Source of the DNA: Escherichia phage vB_EcoM_Skers
Direction: 5' to 3' (one strand)
Sequence record: MW748999.1
DNA: 64,000 nt
The notes under the pieces were generated by a model. It did no database searches, had not been told where the DNA came from, and saw nothing but the letters and a program-made list of their open reading frames with translations. Of this stretch, positions 587 through 38,524 are shown one piece after another. How positions within the stretch are numbered: position 1 is the first letter of the stretch; each line of letters starts with the position of its first letter. A program made the translations under genes and the position numbers.

Positions 587-1212
587 AGAATTTTAAGGAA
601 ACTGGATAGACCTGATAATGAATATACACCAGATTCCCCGCATTCGCACTTGATCGGTACTGCCAGCGTGATTTGATTTCTTGTTAGCTCGTCGATCACT
701 TCTTCCACTTTATCCGTGGTAAGCATATCCAGCACGCGGTCAAAGTCCTGTGCGTTCAGGTCGTCTATATTGAATTGCTGATCGCCGATCACGATATATT
801 CGATACATGCAATTACCATCTGCATAATATCAACATCTTCTGTAAATTTAGGTTGACGAAACTTGATTTTTACTTGTCCTAAGTCCAGAATATACGGTTC
901 AACTTCTGGTATCTGTGTGCGTGAAACATCAAGAGAGTATACTTTCTCTTTATTGCATACACCACACACCCAAGTAGCATCAATTTTCATCTTATTGAGG
1001 CTGTGACACCATAAGAGAAGAAAAATATATTCTGCTTCGCATTTCTCTAGCTCTAATGCATTGATCCCCGTACATTCATGTATGATCTCTATAACAACCT
1101 CTGACAGCTTGCCAGTCTCTTTTGCTGCTACCAGTTTTTGAAATTCGCCGAAGGTGAAAGCACGGGCGTGTATCAACTTTTCGCCTAATTGGATCTTGAA
1201 AAAGTATTGCAT
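583..1212 (-). CDS. 26: Baseplate hub subunit gp26
   Basis: 209 aa (T4 gp26 is 208 aa); position between gene 25 and divergent gene 51; CxxCNKE zinc-ribbon-like motif. Confidence 0.7.
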   Translation of the reverse strand: MQYFFKIQLGEKLIHARAFTFGEFQKLVAAKETGKLSEVVIEIIHECTGINALELEKCEAEYIFLLLWCHSLNKMKIDATWVCGVCNKEKVYSLDVSRTQIPEVEPYILDLGQVKIKFRQPKFTEDVDIMQMVIACIEYIVIGDQQFNIDDLNAQDFDRVLDMLTTDKVEEVIDELTRNQITLAVPIKCECGESGVYSLSGLSSFLKIL

Positions 1213-1254
1213 AATAAAACACCCTTTATAAACACATAGAATTATTTAGTATTT

Positions 1255-1262
1255 TATAAATA
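1255..1262 (+). promoter_or_regulatory. T4-type late promoter (TATAAATA)
   Basis: Exact TATAAATA about 20 nt upstream of the gene 51 ATG. Confidence 0.55.
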
Positions 1263-1282
1263 CCCGAAAGGGGGATTATACC

Positions 1283-2053
1283 ATGAATATTATCCGAATA
1301 AAACTACCGGAAGGTGTGCAGAGATTTAAACCATTCACGGTAAAAGATTATAGAGATTTCCTTCTGGTGTCAACTGAAATTAAGATGAATCCAGAAGAAG
1401 AACAAACGATTCTGGATGAGCTATTAGAAGAAATATATCCAGAAGTAGATCCGGCATTTCGTGAATATATTTTCCTGAATGTCTTTACTAGTTCAATCGG
1501 TAAAACTAAGATACCGCTTTGTTTTACTTGCCCGACTTGCAACAAAGAAAGAAAAATGTTGCTTAACTTACAGGTTGAAGCACTAAAACCAATCGTTCTA
1601 GAGGCCGCAGGGCTTAAAATAACTTTCCGGTATGTTAAACCATCAACCGACTATGCAAAAACGTTTCTGGATGCGATAGAGCGTGTATCTGATGGTATTA
1701 ATGATTATCTATGGACTGAATTACCGGAAGAAGTTAGAGAACAGGTTATCGATTCAATCTCATTTGCTGAATTTGAAGAAGTTGTTAAGCAGATGCACAC
1801 AATCAAGATCGAACAAAAGATATCTTGTTGTGAAAGTCATGACCTGAAATACATAGGTCTTCTTCCATTATTCAAATTGTTGTTGAATCCAGATGAGTTA
1901 TTCATCTTTTATCGAATAAACCATCTATTGGCAAAATCAAATTATTCTATCAGTGATCTTATGGATATGTTACCGATTGAGAGAAACATTGCACTGACAC
2001 TGGTCGAGAAAGACGTAAAAGAGGCAACTAATGCAAAGAACGGGGTTTCCTAA
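1283..2053 (+). CDS. 51: Baseplate hub assembly protein gp51
   Basis: 256 aa (T4 gp51 is 249 aa); divergent from 26 and upstream of 27 as in T4; paralogous to gp26 (EYIFL, CxxCNKE motifs). Confidence 0.65.
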   Translation: MNIIRIKLPEGVQRFKPFTVKDYRDFLLVSTEIKMNPEEEQTILDELLEEIYPEVDPAFREYIFLNVFTSSIGKTKIPLCFTCPTCNKERKMLLNLQVEALKPIVLEAAGLKITFRYVKPSTDYAKTFLDAIERVSDGINDYLWTELPEEVREQVIDSISFAEFEEVVKQMHTIKIEQKISCCESHDLKYIGLLPLFKLLLNPDELFIFYRINHLLAKSNYSISDLMDMLPIERNIALTLVEKDVKEATNAKNGVS

Positions 2054-3140
2054 TGTCTCAATAAAACTTTATCAGGATTATGAGGCATTTCTAAATCATC
2101 GCTTTATAGAGTTGGGTGCTACCTTTGTTACAATGACTCTGCGTGATTCGATTCGTGGGGTGAATGAAGGATTGTTGCAATTCTATGATAATAAGGCGAT
2201 GCATACAAAATTAAATGGGAGAGAGATCATTCAGATTTCGCTATCCACTGCTAATACAGATGAAGTGTTTAACCGAATCTATGGGATCTCTCATAGTAAT
2301 GTAACAATTGACCAAAAATCCGACAACATTTTAACATTCCAGTTAAAGAGCTATCACGAAACACTAAACCTTAAATTTTCTCGCTCATTAACAAATAACG
2401 CTGTTAATAACGTAACTAGCATGATTGATGCCATCTATAAGGAAGTTCCTTTATGGAAACCTACTATAAAGGGTGATAACGTTGTTATTCCTCGTTGTCC
2501 GTGGGTTAGTACCGTAAATGACTATATGGATTTTGTGAGGGCATACGGGCAAAGCGTAGAAACAGAGTCTTTCGTGTATTGCTGGGAAGATTTTGATGGT
2601 ATAACGATCGCTGGACACGATACATTATTAAAAAATGAGCCAATACCAGCTATAATCTGTGAGCCTAGACTCATGGGTCAATTTATTGATATGTCACCTA
2701 ATCTGATGGTTTTTAATTTCGAGTGGCAGACTAAGAGCAATGCTAAAGTCAAAAACTCGTTTAACAATGTGACATACACAGCTATTGATTTTGTTACTAA
2801 GCAGTATAATAAAATTGTTGTTGGTAATGGGGATAATATTGCACACTTTGCTCATGGTGGCGCTTATGGAGATTTAACTTATAAGAATGCGTTTTTGGAA
2901 GGTTCTAAACTTGCCACAATAGAACAATATGATTCGTATGCTACCGCCGTGTGTCACGGTAATTTTTCGTTGCGCCCCGGTATGGTTATTCGATTCTTTG
3001 ATGAGAAACAACAAGCACGCAATGATTTTATTGTTGACGAAGTTGTGCATGAAATTAGCCGAGAGCAATCATTAACTCACCTGTATATGATCGGTAACAG
3101 CGAAGAATTACAGGAAGTCAAATTTGAAGGTAAGATATAA
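2031..3140 (+). CDS. 27: Baseplate hub subunit gp27
   Basis: 369 aa; N-terminus MQRTGFPNVSIKLYQDY resembles recalled T4 gp27; gene order 51-27-28-29. Confidence 0.8.
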   Translation: MQRTGFPNVSIKLYQDYEAFLNHRFIELGATFVTMTLRDSIRGVNEGLLQFYDNKAMHTKLNGREIIQISLSTANTDEVFNRIYGISHSNVTIDQKSDNILTFQLKSYHETLNLKFSRSLTNNAVNNVTSMIDAIYKEVPLWKPTIKGDNVVIPRCPWVSTVNDYMDFVRAYGQSVETESFVYCWEDFDGITIAGHDTLLKNEPIPAIICEPRLMGQFIDMSPNLMVFNFEWQTKSNAKVKNSFNNVTYTAIDFVTKQYNKIVVGNGDNIAHFAHGGAYGDLTYKNAFLEGSKLATIEQYDSYATAVCHGNFSLRPGMVIRFFDEKQQARNDFIVDEVVHEISREQSLTHLYMIGNSEELQEVKFEGKI

Positions 3141-3658
3141 TGACAGAAACTAAACCTATGTTAAAATTTGTTGTTCCTGTAAAAAAATTAGAGATAAACG
3201 GGAAACATATTAAGATCCCAAAAATGGGGATTAAGCAACATCGATTATTAAAAGATGTTCGTAGCTGTGATGAAACATTAAAGATTCTTCTTGATTCAAT
3301 CTGTCCTGGGTTAAACGCTGCCGAGTCTGAATTGGTTATGCTTAACCTTTGTGCGTTTAATGGTAAGTGTCTGGAAGAAAAAGATGGTCTTAAGCTGTCT
3401 GATGTGTATATTTGTACAGAGACCGAATTTACTTTAAATGGTAAAGTCTTTAAATTTAAAAATCCAATGTATACTTCTGACCCCATTATCGATGACGCTG
3501 ATTTCTTGAGTCATCATTATCACGATCCTAGTGTAGACTTCCATGATTTCCCAGCTTTTATTATGGATTGGGCTACAGGATTAAGAAAAACTATTGCGCT
3601 GGATACGCCGGAAGGCACTATCTATGGTGGAATTAACATATTGGATCGCCTATCATGA
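3140..3658 (+). CDS. 28: Baseplate hub distal subunit gp28
   Basis: 172 aa (T4 gp28 is 177 aa); start overlaps gp27 stop; position. Confidence 0.75.
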   Translation: MTETKPMLKFVVPVKKLEINGKHIKIPKMGIKQHRLLKDVRSCDETLKILLDSICPGLNAAESELVMLNLCAFNGKCLEEKDGLKLSDVYICTETEFTLNGKVFKFKNPMYTSDPIIDDADFLSHHYHDPSVDFHDFPAFIMDWATGLRKTIALDTPEGTIYGGINILDRLS

Positions 3659-5388
3659 ATGACGCATTAACATCATTTCGCGGGATGCGCAAGGAAGCGG
3701 AAGAAAATCCGATTGATAAACTTAACAAGTTAGATAAACTTGATTCTATTGATAATTTGCAAGCCGCTACCGAATTGGTGGCGGAGACAGTAGAACAAAA
3801 ATCTAATGAAGTTGTTGGTGCGGTAGAGGATAACACCGCAGCCAATGAATTGACGGCAGAGAATACCCAATCTACCGCTGGCAATACCCAAAAAACTTAT
3901 GAAGAATTGCAAAAACTCAATAATTTCTCTTCTCAGATGAATGAGAAATTACGTGGTTTTGGTGTTATGATGGAACGTAGATTTGGTGTTGTCAGTAAAA
4001 TGGCTAGCGGTATTGGTGCGATTGAAGAAGCACTGAAAAAACCTGAACAACCGCAAACAATGCCATCACCTCAGCCAGTTTTGCCTACTGTACCGGAACA
4101 GCCTAATAATGACAACTATCAAGGTCTTCCAAAGAAAAAACCAGATGTTGAGGAACGGAAGAAAAAGAACGCCGCAGATAAGCGCAATGCGGATTCTATG
4201 GAAAATCTTCTTAAAGTTGTTCGTGGAGGATTTAAAGAAACCATAGGTATCTCTAATAAGGTCTTAGGGATGTTATTTAAGATCACCTTGACCGCTATGG
4301 CAGAAGCCGCAAAATGGGGCGCTATTTTGATGGGTATTGTTTTTGCCATCGACACCCTTATGATTCATTTCAGATATTGGAGTGATTTATTCGAAACAAA
4401 ATTCGATGAATTTATGGATAAGGCCGGAGAATGGGCTGGACCAATTAGTGATATTCTAACAACTATTCGTCAAGTTCGAGATTATTGGTCTAAAGGTGAA
4501 TATGGAGAATTAATTAAATCTCTTGTTATGGGTATTGGTGATGCATTCTATAAAACCTTTATCCAACTTGATCGAATTATCACTACTGGTATTGCTAAAA
4601 TTCTTCGCATGATCCCTGGTATGGGTGATTATGCCGATAAGTTAGAATATGGTGCTTTAAAATCTGCTGTCGCTCAAGGCTATACGCCAAATGAAAGAGA
4701 ACTCGAATTAATGGATAAGGTCGAGTCTGAACACGAAGAGGACAAATACGGGGAGCGTACTGGCTGGACCGGAAAAGCCCGTGATATTGGTGAGGCTATC
4801 GGTGACTCCATTAAAGATAAAGTTAACGAGGGTCTTGTTAGTCTGGGCTGGAGAGATCAAAAGGATGTTGACGCAGAGAAGCGACAAGAAGAATTAAAAC
4901 GCGGGGAATATGAGTCTGTTTCTGCTGAACAGCGATCTGCTAGTCGTAAACTTAGAATTAAAAGCGAGGGCGCGATCAATAATATTAATGAAGTTATGGA
5001 GAACTTGAGCGGTGACTATGACAAAGAAAAAATTGGAGAGTTGAAAAAGGATATTGATGTTTACCGTGAGCAAGTTCAAGATCCTACATTAGTTGAAAGT
5101 GATCGTTCTCAGTTAGAGCGTCTTATTGAAAAATTTGATGAGATGTATGCTGATAAAACTAAGGGTGTGGTTCCAGCTAAATCTGTTCCGGCAACTGAAA
5201 CGGAAACAGCAAAACAAGCGGAACGTACTGAACAAATGCAGAAACAAGCTGCAATCCAGCAACAAACGACAAATCAGACCTCAAACGTAAATAATACACA
5301 AATTGTAACAAACAATAGAACTATTAAACAGGGTGCACCAACAACTAGAATTGATGCACCAGGTACAATTAATATGGGGAACTTTTAA
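3655..5388 (+). CDS. 29: Baseplate hub / tail length determinator gp29
   Basis: 577 aa (T4 gp29 is 590 aa); charged coiled-coil-rich sequence; position. Confidence 0.8.
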   Translation: MNDALTSFRGMRKEAEENPIDKLNKLDKLDSIDNLQAATELVAETVEQKSNEVVGAVEDNTAANELTAENTQSTAGNTQKTYEELQKLNNFSSQMNEKLRGFGVMMERRFGVVSKMASGIGAIEEALKKPEQPQTMPSPQPVLPTVPEQPNNDNYQGLPKKKPDVEERKKKNAADKRNADSMENLLKVVRGGFKETIGISNKVLGMLFKITLTAMAEAAKWGAILMGIVFAIDTLMIHFRYWSDLFETKFDEFMDKAGEWAGPISDILTTIRQVRDYWSKGEYGELIKSLVMGIGDAFYKTFIQLDRIITTGIAKILRMIPGMGDYADKLEYGALKSAVAQGYTPNERELELMDKVESEHEEDKYGERTGWTGKARDIGEAIGDSIKDKVNEGLVSLGWRDQKDVDAEKRQEELKRGEYESVSAEQRSASRKLRIKSEGAINNINEVMENLSGDYDKEKIGELKKDIDVYREQVQDPTLVESDRSQLERLIEKFDEMYADKTKGVVPAKSVPATETETAKQAERTEQMQKQAAIQQQTTNQTSNVNNTQIVTNNRTIKQGAPTTRIDAPGTINMGNF

Positions 5389-33776: not shown

Positions 33777-33804
33777 ATTATACACTGTTGCGTTACGCTG
33801 TCAA
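33777..33804 (-). promoter_or_regulatory. PeSL-type early promoter (no palindrome)
   Basis: TTGACA-N16-TATAAT. Confidence 0.6.
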
Positions 33805-34971
33805 CTCTTTTTCAAAAGATTTTACGATATACATGATAGTGCTCAATTCAGACGGCGCTACTGTCTCTGTCCAGCCATCCGGCATATCTTCTTTCGAGAT
33901 ATAGGAAGTTTTACCTTTCATCGCTTCCTTGATTTTGTTTTCTAATTCTAAGATCTTTTGACCATCTTGTAAAGTCAATTCATAAAAGATCTCGTGATCG
34001 AACTTTGAAACACGAGATTGGTTTCTCATGCGCTCATGTGTTTCTTTGTTTGTTATTCCAAATTTCACGCCAACAAAGGAATCATTGTTGGTTAATTTCT
34101 GTATATAAAGAGTTCCTGTCTTTAATGCCTGATAACCATGCTTAGAACACAACGGGCAGCGTGTTCCGCGATTAACAAAATTATCAATAGTTACAACCCA
34201 TTCATGGTTACGTTCGCATGTCAGAAGTATTCTTGTTAATGCACCTTTCCACTTTCCTGAAATCCCAATAAATTTTAGTCTGTTGGTTTCGCATATTTTT
34301 TCAATTTGTTTTAATCGGTCACTTTTTGTTATTGGTGCTGTTCCGCTACATTTGTGACACCGACGACCTAGTTTGAACTTATCATAACTTTGTTCGTAAA
34401 TGTGATTATTAGGACACTCAAATTTAAGTTTAGTTTTTGTTCCTTTCCATTCCCCAATTATACCCAAAAATTTATAATCTCCTTTATTTTCATTTATATA
34501 AGATAAGGAATCTTCTTTATCATACATCTTGCCACCGTTACATAAAGGACATCTTGTTTTTTGATGAATGAAATCTGTATATGTTGGTTGGTATGTGTGT
34601 CCGTTTGCACAGTTCATAATGAGTCTTGTTCTGCTATTTTTATACTCCCCACCAACAAAACCAACAAATACATCGTTTGTTTCTTGTTTTATTCTTTCTA
34701 TCACATGGTTTAGGTTTAATCTTTGAGAATCAACCACACATTTCTTACACGAAACTTTTTTCCTGATATTTGCTAGAGTTGATGTGTATTCATGCTTGTT
34801 ATTACATAATATAAGAGCTTTTGTTTTGAGACCAGACCATTCTCCAACAAACCCCATGAAAGAATAACCAACTTCCAAACATGAATTTTTTACAACATTT
34901 TCCCAATAGAAGGGAGTTTTCGTGTTTCCTTTTATTTCTATACGAATCTCATGTGCTTGACGTACTAACAT
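33793..34971 (-). CDS. Repeat protein: four zinc-ribbon-like repeats plus C-terminal GIY-YIG-like (T5orf172-type) domain
   Basis: Four ~60-aa repeats F.G..GEW.G..T...C.N.H...(x)...RC..C; C-terminal GTLYIQ...VKFGITNKETHERM...HEIFYEL...GWTE; start trimmed to ATG 34971. Confidence 0.5.
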   Translation of the reverse strand: MLVRQAHEIRIEIKGNTKTPFYWENVVKNSCLEVGYSFMGFVGEWSGLKTKALILCNNKHEYTSTLANIRKKVSCKKCVVDSQRLNLNHVIERIKQETNDVFVGFVGGEYKNSRTRLIMNCANGHTYQPTYTDFIHQKTRCPLCNGGKMYDKEDSLSYINENKGDYKFLGIIGEWKGTKTKLKFECPNNHIYEQSYDKFKLGRRCHKCSGTAPITKSDRLKQIEKICETNRLKFIGISGKWKGALTRILLTCERNHEWVVTIDNFVNRGTRCPLCSKHGYQALKTGTLYIQKLTNNDSFVGVKFGITNKETHERMRNQSRVSKFDHEIFYELTLQDGQKILELENKIKEAMKGKTSYISKEDMPDGWTETVAPSELSTIMYIVKSFEKELTA

Positions 34972-35001
34972 AATTTTATCCTCCTTTGTTTCGATGTTTG
35001 T

Positions 35002-35029
35002 ATTATACATCCTAACATCAGCATGTCAA
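35002..35029 (-). promoter_or_regulatory. PeSL-type early promoter (no palindrome)
   Basis: TTGACA-N16-TATAAT. Confidence 0.6.
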
Positions 35030-35049
35030 CACCTTTTTCATAAAAATTT

Positions 35050-35081
35050 AGGCAATAAAAAAGCCTCCCCGAAGGGAGGCT
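35050..35081 (-). terminator. Intrinsic terminator downstream of gene 32
   Basis: AGCCTCCCttcgGGGAGGCT followed by TTTTTTATTGCC on minus strand. Confidence 0.7.
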
Positions 35082-35091
35082 GTAAAATTCA

Positions 35092-36066
35092 TTACATCGC
35101 TAACAGAGAATCCAGGTCATCCAGATCAGAAGCGGAGGAAGTACCGCCACCCAGATCCAGAGATGCCATCAGGTCATCAGCGGAAGAATCTAACGCCGTG
35201 CTAGCTGCGTTAATACCAACTACAGTGCTAGCTGCGGTCATACCAGAATCGAATGCATTCATCTGTGCGTCAAAATCGTCAAGCTGGCTGTTAATCGCTG
35301 CCGCAGCACTGGAAGCCGCAGCACCAGCTACCATAGAAACGCCCATAGTTTTCTTAAATTTGGTTTCCAGTTCATCGAACGGTTTAAACTGGCTAGGCGC
35401 TACAATCTCACTCAGATCAACCATGTTTTCCATCAGATATTTCTGATATGCTTCGTCTTCAATTTTCGGAAGCTGTGATTGCTGCATGAAACGAGAATCA
35501 TCATAGTTCTGGTGTTTATCAACCTTCTTAGCTTTCAGGAGGAAGTTAGCACCAGAGAACACACAAGTTACATCGACCGGAACTTCGCCCATATCGGTAT
35601 TCACGTTCACCATTGCAACGATCTTATCATAAATTTTCTGACCGAAGCGGAATTTGAATACCTTACCTTCATTTTCTGGTGCTTGAGGATCTTTCAGTAC
35701 CAGAATGTTTGCGTAGTAAGACGCTTTACGCTTAATCAGTTGCCATTCGGTTTTATCGGTATTGTACAAGTCTTTTTCGTTAATATATTTGCACACAGGG
35801 CAAGAATCAAAATCACCGTGGGTGCTGGAGCAGTTTTCCCAATACCATTTGCCATTAACTTTGAAGGAATGGTTTACCAGTTTCACAATCGGCAGACCGT
35901 CTTCTGTCTTAGACGGCAGGAAGCGAATCAGGGCTTCACCGTTACCTGCTGCATCAGTCTTAATCTTCCACTCTTTCGGATCTTCTTTGGAGAAACCGTT
36001 GCCACCTTTCAGTGCGGCCAGTTGAGCTTGCAATTTGGAGCTATCTTGACGACGAAACATGTTCAT
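35092..36066 (-). CDS. 32: Single-stranded DNA-binding protein gp32
   Basis: Strong match to recalled T4 gp32 (LPSK, NGKWY, CSSTHGD.DSCPVC zinc site, acidic C-tail). Confidence 0.92.
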
Positions 36067-36126
36067 AATTATACCTCTTTATACATTAACTATTGATTAA
36101 TTTACGTTTTATACTATATCAGATAC

Positions 36127-36723
36127 TTAATTGCTTGTCAATACTTTATCAATTATATCTAACAGTTTTGGCTTTCTATTTTCAAATTCTAACATCTCTT
36201 CGGGAGAAATGTCAACTACTTCTGTTTTGTTGAAAAAGTTTGGGTCTATAGCATCAGCAACAAAGTTTCTCGCAAGTGCTGCCGCTTTCTCATGAACATA
36301 TATTCCCAAATATATCAACTTCTTTCTTTCGACCTGAATATTGGCAACATATTTACCATCTCGTTTATAAAGACTAACACCGATATATTCAGACGATCGA
36401 CCTTTCTGTTTACCCATATTTCTTGAGTTTTGTTGCTCGTTCGCATCTCTCAAGTTTTCAATCCGATTATCTGTTATAATTCGGTTAACATGGTCAACGT
36501 ATTTTGGCATGTATCCATGATGCATAAAGAAAATTATTCTATGCTCTTTATGATGTTTACCATCGATACACACCAATCTGTATCCATGACTAGGATTAAC
36601 TCCACCCGCTCTAGATCCGACTTTATGCTTTCGGTTTGTCGATATCTTGCGAATCAGCTTACCGTTATCATATTTAAAGAGTTCATGACAACGAGCATAC
36701 AATTCAGGATCATATGTTTTCAC
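36127..36723 (-). CDS. HNH homing endonuclease with AP2 DNA-binding domain
   Basis: HNH motif HHGYMPKYVDHVNRIITDNRIENLR; AP2-like SEYIGVSLYKRDGKYVANIQV; inserted between genes 59 and 32. Confidence 0.75.
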   Translation of the reverse strand: MKTYDPELYARCHELFKYDNGKLIRKISTNRKHKVGSRAGGVNPSHGYRLVCIDGKHHKEHRIIFFMHHGYMPKYVDHVNRIITDNRIENLRDANEQQNSRNMGKQKGRSSEYIGVSLYKRDGKYVANIQVERKKLIYLGIYVHEKAAALARNFVADAIDPNFFNKTEVVDISPEEMLEFENRKPKLLDIIDKVLTSN

Positions 36724-37387
36724 CTTTTAACCTCGATATTTCTTTACACTCTTTAACTACTTTAACAAATAATGCTCTTGCTTTTGCGGCGTCAATAACA
36801 AGTAGTTTCTTGTACGCCTTCATTTTAACACTATAAGTTTGCCAAATCAAGTCTTTGGCTACCTTGTCGTGTTCGTCGATTATATTTAGAAAGCTATCTA
36901 ACAACATAAACGACTCAAACGATATAATCCGATTTTGCAGTAGTTTAAAAATACCGCTTGTTTCGGTTGCGGGATTATATGTAATTAGCTCTTTAAGAGT
37001 AACCCCGCGTTTCTCGGAGAAGTATACCAGACTTTTAATGTCATCGTCAAATCTTGTTGCTGCATCGGTTATCTTTCCTATGTATTCCATATAAAAGCCG
37101 TATGCGTCAACATCAGTGATTTCACCTACCCATGCATCGGTATTGGCTACCAGATTGCTTAGGAATAGGAAGTATAATTCTCTTAGATTGTATTTTTCCG
37201 CTAATTTCGCGAAATAATACTTATCTCTGCGTTTATTGAATGCGGCATCAGATAACCGCATCCTCCAATTATATTTTACGCAATCATAACGCCCGTTCAT
37301 ATGAGCTTTCATCATGCAATATAACATATACACAGATTTAGCATTAATTCGCATATCTGGATCTGGAGGAAGACGGTTTCTGATCAT
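36710..37387 (-). CDS. 59: Helicase loader gp59
   Basis: KSVYMLYCMMKAHMNGRYDCVKYNWRMRLSDAAFNKRRDKYYF matches recalled T4 gp59. Confidence 0.9.
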   Translation of the reverse strand: MIRNRLPPDPDMRINAKSVYMLYCMMKAHMNGRYDCVKYNWRMRLSDAAFNKRRDKYYFAKLAEKYNLRELYFLFLSNLVANTDAWVGEITDVDAYGFYMEYIGKITDAATRFDDDIKSLVYFSEKRGVTLKELITYNPATETSGIFKLLQNRIISFESFMLLDSFLNIIDEHDKVAKDLIWQTYSVKMKAYKKLLVIDAAKARALFVKVVKECKEISRLKGENI

Positions 37388-37396
37388 ACATACCCC

Positions 37397-37666
37397 TTAA
37401 ATATCGAGAGTGTTGGTCGGTTCGTCGATCACTCCCTTCCTGAGTGTTCTATTTACTATACATTCTTGTGTGATCTTGTCAATAATGGACACCGGAATAT
37501 ACTTCTGATAGTGACCATATTCTATAGAGTTTTCCTCTACAAACTGAGTGGTCGCTTCAAGATAAGTCAATCCCTCTTCAACAACCAGTTTTTCGATTGC
37601 AAGACCGTTTGCTGTTTTGTTCGCGGCTTTTACCGCATGTTCATTAAGCATTGAACACCCGATCAT
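37397..37666 (-). CDS. 33: Late transcription co-activator gp33
   Basis: IEKLVVEEGLTYLEATTQFVEENSI matches recalled T4 gp33. Confidence 0.85.
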   Translation of the reverse strand: MIGCSMLNEHAVKAANKTANGLAIEKLVVEEGLTYLEATTQFVEENSIEYGHYQKYIPVSIIDKITQECIVNRTLRKGVIDEPTNTLDI

Positions 37667-37919
37667 AGAGTTCTACCGCTTCATCGCGTTCTGCTTCGAA
37701 GGTTTCGCGCTGTTGCTGGTGATACAGTTTAAACAGAATGCCCCACATTTTACCATCTACGCCTAATTCTTCTTTAGCACGCTGTTTGATCTCTTTGATC
37801 TTATCGCCATATGCTTCTTGAATGGTTTTCTGATCGCTGGCTTCTTTAATCAGTTGTGCCAGGGTATTTCCGTGTACATTTTCATCGAATACTACTTTTT
37901 CTTTTTTCTGTTCAGTCAT
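37644..37919 (-). CDS. dsbA: dsDNA-binding protein DsbA
   Basis: FDENVHGNTLAQLIKEASD ... ELGVDGKM ... ELYDRVF matches recalled T4 DsbA. Confidence 0.85.
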   Translation of the reverse strand: MTEQKKEKVVFDENVHGNTLAQLIKEASDQKTIQEAYGDKIKEIKQRAKEELGVDGKMWGILFKLYHQQQRETFEAERDEAVELYDRVFNA

Positions 37920-37924
37920 AATAT

Positions 37925-38524
37925 TTAACCCTCTTTCGTCATTAATTGAAAACCACGTTCAGCTTTTGAAATTTCGCTAGGACTTAAATCGTCACCAACA
38001 TATCCTAGCATCATTTCTCGGATAATGTCAAGTGCTTTTTCATCACCTGATTTTAACTCGAACTCAAGTTCATAATTCGCGCTTGTGTTGATATATCTAC
38101 CTATTCCTGCATAATTAAATGCATCGGTGCATATTTCAACTACGCCTATACCAGTATCAATTGTTCGAGCTACTCTAGCTGTCATAACATAAAATTGCGG
38201 TCTAAGTTGTGTTAAGTTAACACCCAAACAATTAACAAATTCAGAAAAATCTTGATAACTACAAAACACTATTTCTTCTCGGTTAAATAAACCGCTTTCG
38301 TGACTTCCATGTTTTATTAGAAATTTATTTGTCTTTTTGTCAAGACGTGCATACACTCCCTGTTTATGTAAAATATATTCTTCGTCATCATAATACGATT
38401 CTAGCTTATTATAGATTTTTCTGTCTACAATACTATAACAATCATATAACTTAGAACATGCGTCAAAAATAGACTTAAGCCCTTTGTTTGACCTTGCATA
38501 GTATTTTAATTCAAGTTCTTTCAT
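37925..38524 (-). CDS. CYTH-like (triphosphate tunnel metalloenzyme) domain protein
   Basis: N-terminal ELELKY (ExExK) and C-terminal ELEFEL acidic strand motif; about 199 aa, typical CYTH size. Confidence 0.45.
   Translation of the reverse strand: MKELELKYYARSNKGLKSIFDACSKLYDCYSIVDRKIYNKLESYYDDEEYILHKQGVYARLDKKTNKFLIKHGSHESGLFNREEIVFCSYQDFSEFVNCLGVNLTQLRPQFYVMTARVARTIDTGIGVVEICTDAFNYAGIGRYINTSANYELEFELKSGDEKALDIIREMMLGYVGDDLSPSEISKAERGFQLMTKEG

Follow-up and report, generated by a model that had tools for sequence, protein, structure and literature searches.

A putative free-standing HNH-AP2 homing endonuclease gene at the 59/32 junction of Escherichia phage vB_EcoM_Skers

Between gene 59 and gene 32 of Escherichia phage vB_EcoM_Skers lies an additional reading frame, and the question is what this frame encodes, how it came to lie there and whether it moves. 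The phage belongs to Krischvirus (RB49-like), its best record matching at about 95% over 20 kb, and the window analysed here is a stretch of 64,000 nucleotides of its genome (MW748999.1). In the original prediction the frame was described as the gene of a free-standing homing endonuclease with an HNH motif and an AP2-type DNA-binding segment, inserted between two genes that are normally close neighbours and possibly driving marker exclusion of the flanking 32 and 59 alleles in mixed infections.

The reading frame and its predicted product

The frame is present exactly as described, with 198 codons and an HNH motif between genes 59 and 32 (Table 1). It begins with GTG (36723-36721), ends with TAA (36129-36127) and shares exactly the predicted 14 nt (36710-36723) with the 3' end of gene 59. 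Its product includes KYVDHVNRIITDNRIENLR. The gene is free-standing, being an ORF of its own between intact genes 59 and 32; a search of positions 34900-37500 with Rfam gave no intron or gene 32 operator family, the two sub-threshold matches both lying at the gene 32 terminator, and no paralogue of the gene was found in the window. Because 50 homologues (E<=1e-5) exist and the AlphaFold model has a pLDDT of 94.5 (pTM 0.81), we do not regard it as a chance ORF.

Table 1. Positions of the genes, protein regions, junctions and putative signals around the endonuclease ORF in the window.
Feature	Position	Strand	Evidence or remark
HNH-AP2 endonuclease ORF, 198 aa	36127..36723	-	same CDS annotated in MIZ4, G2494, ELT4, kvi, Makalu_002
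Gene 59 (helicase loader), upstream host gene	36710..37387	-	Pfam T4_Gp59_N E 4e-41, T4_Gp59_C E 6.5e-29
Gene 32 (ssDNA-binding protein), downstream host gene	35092..36066	-	Pfam gp32 E 1e-51
N-terminal helix and beta-hairpin region, residues 1-60	36544..36723	-	aligns to I-HmuI jointly with the HNH core
HNH (beta-beta-alpha-metal) catalytic core, residues 61-102	36418..36543	-	Pfam HNH_3; 47-sequence alignment
AP2-type predicted DNA-binding domain, residues 112-159, three strands and a helix	36247..36390	-	fold
C-terminal extension, residues 165-198, long helix 174-197	36130..36231	-	alignment; AlphaFold model
Left junction, last 8 codons of gene 59	36710..36734	-	SRLKGENI(stop) versus SQLKAETNS(stop) in empty alleles
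Right-flank block: gene 32 promoter, 5' UTR, first codons; candidate co-conversion tract	36040..36133	-	SNP table; r2
GAGG Shine-Dalgarno sequence, 7 nt upstream of GTG	36731..36734	-	junction alignment; r2 = 1.0 with insert presence
Sigma-70-type promoter-like site TTGACA-18-TAGAAT, TG extended, facing gene 32	36186..36215	-	within the last 30 ORF codons
Gene 32 promoter-like site TTGACA-17-TATAGT	36113..36141	-	straddles the ORF stop; -35 hexamer in the last ORF codons
Terminator-like hairpin 3' of gene 32	35062-35081	-	terminator-like site

The HNH part is readily recognised. Residues 61-101 match the Pfam profile HNH_3 (PF13392) with 43.6 bits against a curated cut-off of 24.8 (E 2.2e-11), and the whole ORF matches PHROG 99 'HNH endonuclease' with E 1.5e-50. 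In an alignment of the product with 46 homologues nine positions are invariant among the 47 sequences (R62, D77, H78, N86, R87, E89, N90, R92 and N102). All of them are kept here, and therefore the catalytic centre looks intact. The AP2 profile (PF00847) matches residues 112-153 with 23.4 bits, which is under the curated cut-off of 33.3; a precomputed PF00847 match is present in 12 of the 50 homologues, and the AP2 repeats of WRI1 are also matched in a phmmer search of the PDB sequences (E 0.0018). At the tryptophan positions of the AP2 family consensus the protein has Leu and Tyr (GVSLYKRDGKYVA versus the consensus GVxWxKxxxKWxA). NCBIfam contains no match for the ORF, and Pfam gives none for the N-terminal 71 aa or the C-terminal 33 aa when each is searched alone.

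The AlphaFold model, built on the homologue alignment, consists of an N-terminal beta-hairpin region, a beta-beta-alpha HNH core, a module of three strands plus a helix (residues 116-159) and a long C-terminal helix (residues 174-197). The predicted core resembles a solved HNH nuclease, and the second module, a three-stranded antiparallel sheet with one helix, can be superposed on solved AP2 domains. The AP2 domain is thus divergent, failing the Pfam threshold and passing the fold test, and is structurally clear in the model. The predicted HNH and AP2 architecture is therefore borne out, for HNH by Pfam and for AP2 by the fold with a sub-threshold Pfam score. The C-terminal extension has no counterpart in any of the aligned homologues from outside Krischvirus. 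Part of it may be former host sequence that is now read through, as has been suggested for T4 segG.

Carriers, empty alleles and linkage

Of 65 phage records which match the 32-59 interval, eleven have the gene at exactly the 59-32 site and about 83% lack it. The other listed Krischvirus records, including RB49, Phi1, JSE and GEC-3S, align in two segments and lack about 590 bp between them. The interval is short and empty in more distant genera as well (Serratia CHI14, Pectobacterium PM2, Morganella MP1), and therefore the empty allele is the ancestral state and the insert is derived. Far from being conserved in all relatives, the gene is thus faced with empty alleles in the majority of the close relatives and in the outgroups. 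Genes 59 and 32 are indeed normally close together in Krischvirus; in T4, however, segG occupies the slot.

The exact ends of the insert were derived from a junction alignment of the window, ten of the eleven carrier loci and eleven empty loci. The empty allele reads ...GAAATATC TCAATTAAAAGCCGAAACAAATAG TTGACAAGTAA..., and in the carriers about 24 nt of it are swapped for about 595 nt starting with GAGGTTAAAAGGTGAAAAC. Because these 24 nt are replaced, gene 59 ends in eight altered codons. On the right the ORF continues into the TTGACA hexamer that forms the -35 element of the gene 32 promoter. The insert divides the sequence of the empty site, and six of the 13 bases beside the insert differ between carriers and empty alleles. 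In the two carriers of the variant that we call type B (see below) only the insert and the 13-bp left junction differ from the empty alleles, and the right flank is identical. With clean empty junctions in relatives and exact ends, the comparison confirms an insertion between the two genes.

An 11-mer of the empty site, AAAGCCGAAAC, recurs with one mismatch in the 3' tail of the endonuclease gene (36165..36175, minus strand) and in a diverged form at the left junction (36716..36730, minus strand), and thus resembles a short direct repeat which flanks the core. About 1.6 matches of this type are expected by chance in the whole window, the test is post hoc and type B has a weaker copy; a target-site duplication was set aside on the two latter grounds.

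All tblastn matches of at least 80% identity are located at the 59-32 locus, while the next-best relatives reach at most 49% and come from Ralstonia, Erwinia and Klebsiella phages and from metagenomes. The carriers, which fall under records labelled as several Krischvirus species, comprise two variants. Type A includes the window and eight fetched loci with 98.5-99.5% amino-acid identity, type B includes E26 and 011D4 with 85%. None of the eleven copies has a frameshift or a truncation, and the catalytic residues are intact in all of them. A comparison of the two variants (window versus E26) gives a mosaic picture, with 100% identity over the first approximately 120 nt (36617-36736), 97% over 36177-36216 and merely 65-80% over most of the core. 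This pattern suggests either recombination between the variants or constrained ends.

Among the nine type A genomes the nucleotide diversity of the insert is 0.0044, about 4-fold lower than in genes 32, 59 and 33-dsbA (0.017-0.020). The low value suggests a recent spread, and purifying selection could account for part of it. The flanks of carriers and non-carriers differ by 0.016, which equals the diversity within the groups. Flanking SNPs are completely associated with the presence of the insert (r2 = 1) only at 36723-36734, about 13 bp into gene 59. In the right flank (36031-36139), which covers the promoter, leader and first codons of gene 32, the mean r2 is 0.53, and this for type A only; within genes 32 and 59 proper and further out it is at the background of 0.04. 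Judged by these patterns, the insert sits on many flanking haplotypes and is younger than these, which would be expected of a homing element but equally of any recently spreading cassette.

Because linkage to the insert ends after 13 bp in gene 59 and after about 100 bp on the gene 32 side, there is no visible footprint of a long-range exclusion of 32/59 alleles. Of the marker exclusion in the original prediction there remains a reasonable inference from the T4 precedent, to which the population linkage adds no long-range footprint. The short tracts, together with the type B right flank, would also weigh against regarding co-conversion as demonstrated.

Expression signals and the surroundings of gene 32

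The Shine-Dalgarno sequence in front of the GTG start arises from insert-linked substitutions within the last codons of gene 59. Between gene 59 and the endonuclease gene there is no promoter-like or terminator-like site, and a T4-type late promoter (TATAAATA) is absent from positions 34900-37700. While T4 mobE is regulated by an internal terminator, none was found within the endonuclease ORF. In several T4 endonuclease genes the ribosome-binding site is hidden by an RNA hairpin. Here folding of 36680-36780 (minus strand) yields -11.2 kcal/mol with z = +0.86, and therefore no RNA structure beyond chance is seen over the ribosome-binding site at the endonuclease start.

The 3' end of the ORF contains two promoter-like sites for gene 32 (Table 1). 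The extended -35 context of the upstream one, AAGTAGTTGACA, is found at three other sites of the window. The downstream one aligns with a homologous TTGACA...TATAAT site, which the GEC-3S record lists as a promoter. Elsewhere in the window the 3' tail is matched by nothing longer than 12-mers, one of them being the promoter context AGTAGTTGACA. Because of the promoter-like sites in the 3' end, a simple deletion of the gene would probably harm the expression of gene 32, which would favour its retention.

Two alleles of the translation-initiation region of gene 32 (36040..36110, minus strand) are in circulation. The first, with a GAGG Shine-Dalgarno sequence, an ATG start, the N-terminus MNMFRR and a leader longer by about 14 nt, occurs in the window, in all type A carriers and in the empty phages ELT3 and phiS. 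The second, which begins with GTG and encodes MNMFKR, is that of the type B carriers and of most empty phages.

On the other side of gene 32 a 405-aa ORF (33793..35010, minus strand) harbours four CapR zinc-finger repeats (Pfam CapR, E 2.7e-29). It matches PHROG 681 'endonuclease' (E 3e-100) and is a putative free-standing nuclease gene; its C-terminal 114 aa give a weak match to MUG113/T5orf172-like domains (E 0.089), and a promoter-like site (35029->35002, minus strand) accompanies it. Among Krischvirus genomes this slot is hypervariable: the copy in GEC-3S is 97% identical, that in FL15 is frameshifted, Cognac, Phi1, W115, phiS, Sf20, ELT4 and MIZ4 have alleles of 38-53% identity, and about half of the genomes lack the gene, whose presence is independent of that of the HNH-AP2 gene. 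Judged by these similarities gene 32 has a nuclease-like gene on either side, an arrangement like that of the 'HEG islands' described before (PMC10055350). A further variable locus is a 199-aa ORF between dsbA and rnh (37925..38524, minus strand), for which Pfam gives no match at E<=0.01 and which is annotated in relatives as CYTH, triphosphatase or adenylate cyclase. Its diversity is 0.09-0.12 (maximum 0.35) compared to about 0.02 in its neighbours, in genomes that are otherwise about 98% identical.

Known systems, alternative explanations and significance

HNH-AP2 homing endonucleases have reportedly been described from T4-related phages, cyanobacteria and ciliates (Magnani et al. 2004; Wuitschick et al. 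2004). The protein from the window shares with this class the N-terminal HNH_3 domain followed by one AP2 domain, a size of about 160-200 aa and a free-standing position in a phage genome. It differs from the other members in its location at the 59/32 junction, in an identity of at most 49% and in the 34-aa C-terminal helical extension with its promoter-like site. Table 5 of Petrov et al. 2010 (PMC2993671) gives one HNH-AP2 gene for RB49, two for JSE, three for RB43 and six for RB16.

At the level of annotation the gene is already known, and the class to which it belongs, as an ordinary member, is known as well. The same gene at the same site is present in MIZ4 (WNA14879.1), ELT4 (UNY41509.1), G2494 (QBO63207.1) and Makalu_002 (QGS83845.1, ORF240) with 98.5-99.5% amino-acid identity, and in these four it is labelled 'HNH endonuclease' or 'homing endonuclease' in GenBank. 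The window phage differs from them by about 5% genome-wide, but without a material difference in this gene. ORF240 of Makalu_002 has been described as an HNH-type homing endonuclease which is missing in Phi1 and Makalu_001 (PMC11611945). In kvi, Cognac, FL20 and pEJ01 the gene is labelled 'hypothetical', and the type B copies (E26 locus 2523..3116, 011D4 locus 3483..4076) carry the label 'Fis family transcriptional regulator', probably a mis-annotation of the HNH-AP2 protein. We also considered the IPA-HNH proteins, the AP2-associated HNH enzymes of ICP1-like phages (Barth et al., PMC10055350). By definition their HNH domain is too divergent for the Pfam HNH_3 profile (PMC10055350). As HNH_3 is recognised here well above the threshold, this group is ruled out and the protein is a canonical HNH_3-AP2 enzyme.

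The closest parallel in position is T4 SegG, whose gene occupies the same 59-32 slot, is also about 0.6 kb long and, like the ORF here with its promoter-like sites, contains gene 32 promoters within its own coding sequence. SegG is a GIY-YIG enzyme which cuts inside gene 32 and away from its own insertion site, with proven homing into T2 and exclusion of T2 gene 32 markers. In Tequatrovirus the slot is dimorphic: without an insert it spans about 1178 bp, whereas the span is about 1765 bp where a SegG homologue is present (for example ASO78A locus 900..1532). With a BLASTP E of 11 against this homologue, membership of the window protein in the Seg (GIY-YIG) group is ruled out. Pfam finds no match at E<=0.01 in the ASO78A homologue, so that its GIY-YIG assignment rests on the literature. 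Among the HNH enzymes, T4 MobE is encoded by a free-standing gene between nrdA and nrdB, makes a strand-specific nick and still homes; unlike the window protein it has no AP2 domain. I-HmuI is a nickase with C-terminal helical and helix-turn-helix DNA-binding modules in place of AP2. It is intron-encoded (phage SPO1, PDB 1u3e) and shares 19% sequence identity with the window protein.

Taking the evidence together, we consider it likely that the element is a free-standing HNH-AP2 homing endonuclease gene at the Krischvirus 59/32 junction which spreads by standard homing. The domains, the polymorphic insertion and the empty outgroups support this reading of the original prediction, with the activity itself being predicted. 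For its transcription, translation, binding, cutting, cut site, immunity and homing we infer the following course from the sequence. Upstream promoters would yield a joint transcript with gene 59, and translation would begin at the gene's own GAGG-N7-GTG, which overlaps the end of gene 59. When the same cell is also infected by an empty-junction relative, the protein would bind at or beside the empty junction by means of its AP2 domain and its N-terminal beta region. The likeliest target, disrupted by the insert, would comprise the 3' end of gene 59 and the gene 32 promoter's -35 region; it most likely spans the insertion point. The HNH centre, with His78, which we take to be the general base, and with Asn86, Asn90 and Asn102, would then nick or cut the DNA, and T4-type recombination-dependent repair would copy the endonuclease gene with a short piece of donor flank. 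The carrier genome would be spared, because its site is split by the insert and six of the 13 adjoining bases are changed.

A patchy distribution and low linkage could also arise without an active endonuclease, given the heavy recombination of T4-like phages. The element might then be a passive cassette, moved by general T4-like recombination or by shuffling at promoter/stem-loop (PeSL) motifs, with a nuclease that is inactive or irrelevant to the spread. Krischvirus genomes are known to shuffle ORFs at such motifs (PMC2839356), the right end of the insert coincides with the TTGACA promoter element and a second promoter-like site lies in its 3' end; furthermore, the flanking SNPs are unlinked to the insert, just as free recombination predicts. 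However, the left end lies inside the coding sequence of gene 59, where there is neither promoter nor stem-loop, and therefore the ORF is not bracketed by two PeSLs. With promoter-like sites on the 3' side only and no left-hand PeSL, it does not correspond to the PeSL cassette with promoter and stem-loop on both sides (Arbiol et al. 2010, PMC2839356). The passive explanation also leaves unaccounted for that the catalytic residues are intact in every copy, that the element is confined to one site and that its diversity is 4-fold below that of the flanks, and we therefore hold it to be improbable.

The same 3' end invites the idea that the gene has been domesticated or serves a dual function, as a regulator of the gene 32 promoter through its AP2 domain, as a carrier of this promoter or as a weapon against competing phages. 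Two promoter-like sites for an essential gene in or at the end of the ORF, a C-terminal helix absent from the homologues and 5' and 3' ends which are nearly identical between the variants while the core diverged would all agree with this, and in T4 the embedding of host promoters in endonuclease genes is known as a means by which these are retained. On the other hand, about 83% of the matching records do without the gene and express gene 32 from a homologous promoter, and no evidence of regulation was found; the roles of a weapon and of a homing enzyme are, moreover, compatible with each other. A function of this kind thus seems quite improbable to us. Hardly credible, finally, is a decaying relic, that is a once-mobile endonuclease gene which is now inactive. 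Many phage endonuclease genes are defunct, for example I-TevIII, and the AP2 domain departs from its consensus, but the eleven copies are free of frameshifts and truncations, the invariant residues are kept, the model is highly confident and the very low diversity suggests a recent spread.

Spread by homing therefore remains our preferred explanation, and it can be placed in a wider context. Homing endonuclease genes settle beside conserved essential genes (PMC10055350), and a colonisation of 59/32 by two endonuclease families independently, each with gene 32 promoters inside, fits this rule. A more far-reaching proposal, which we put forward tentatively and think unlikely to hold as a whole, is that unrelated endonuclease families have converged on 59/32 as their landing site, GIY-YIG SegG in Tequatrovirus and HNH-AP2 in Krischvirus, and that each gene is hard to delete there owing to the gene 32 promoters. 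Together with the CapR-repeat gene the HNH-AP2 gene would form an 'HEG island' which moves gene 32 alleles from phage to phage, and the C-terminal helix and the AP2 domain might add a second role at the gene 32 promoter.

By itself the finding is of little weight, but it offers a clean case from nature of a free-standing homing endonuclease gene. In the several GenBank records that now call it 'hypothetical protein' or 'Fis family transcriptional regulator', the gene should be named HNH-AP2 homing endonuclease. Since carriers, empty alleles, two variants and exact junctions are all available in cultured coliphages, the locus is a convenient system for the specificity of HNH-AP2 enzymes, which has rarely been characterised. 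It could also serve to ask what makes unrelated endonucleases settle at 59/32 in T4 as well as in RB49-like phages.
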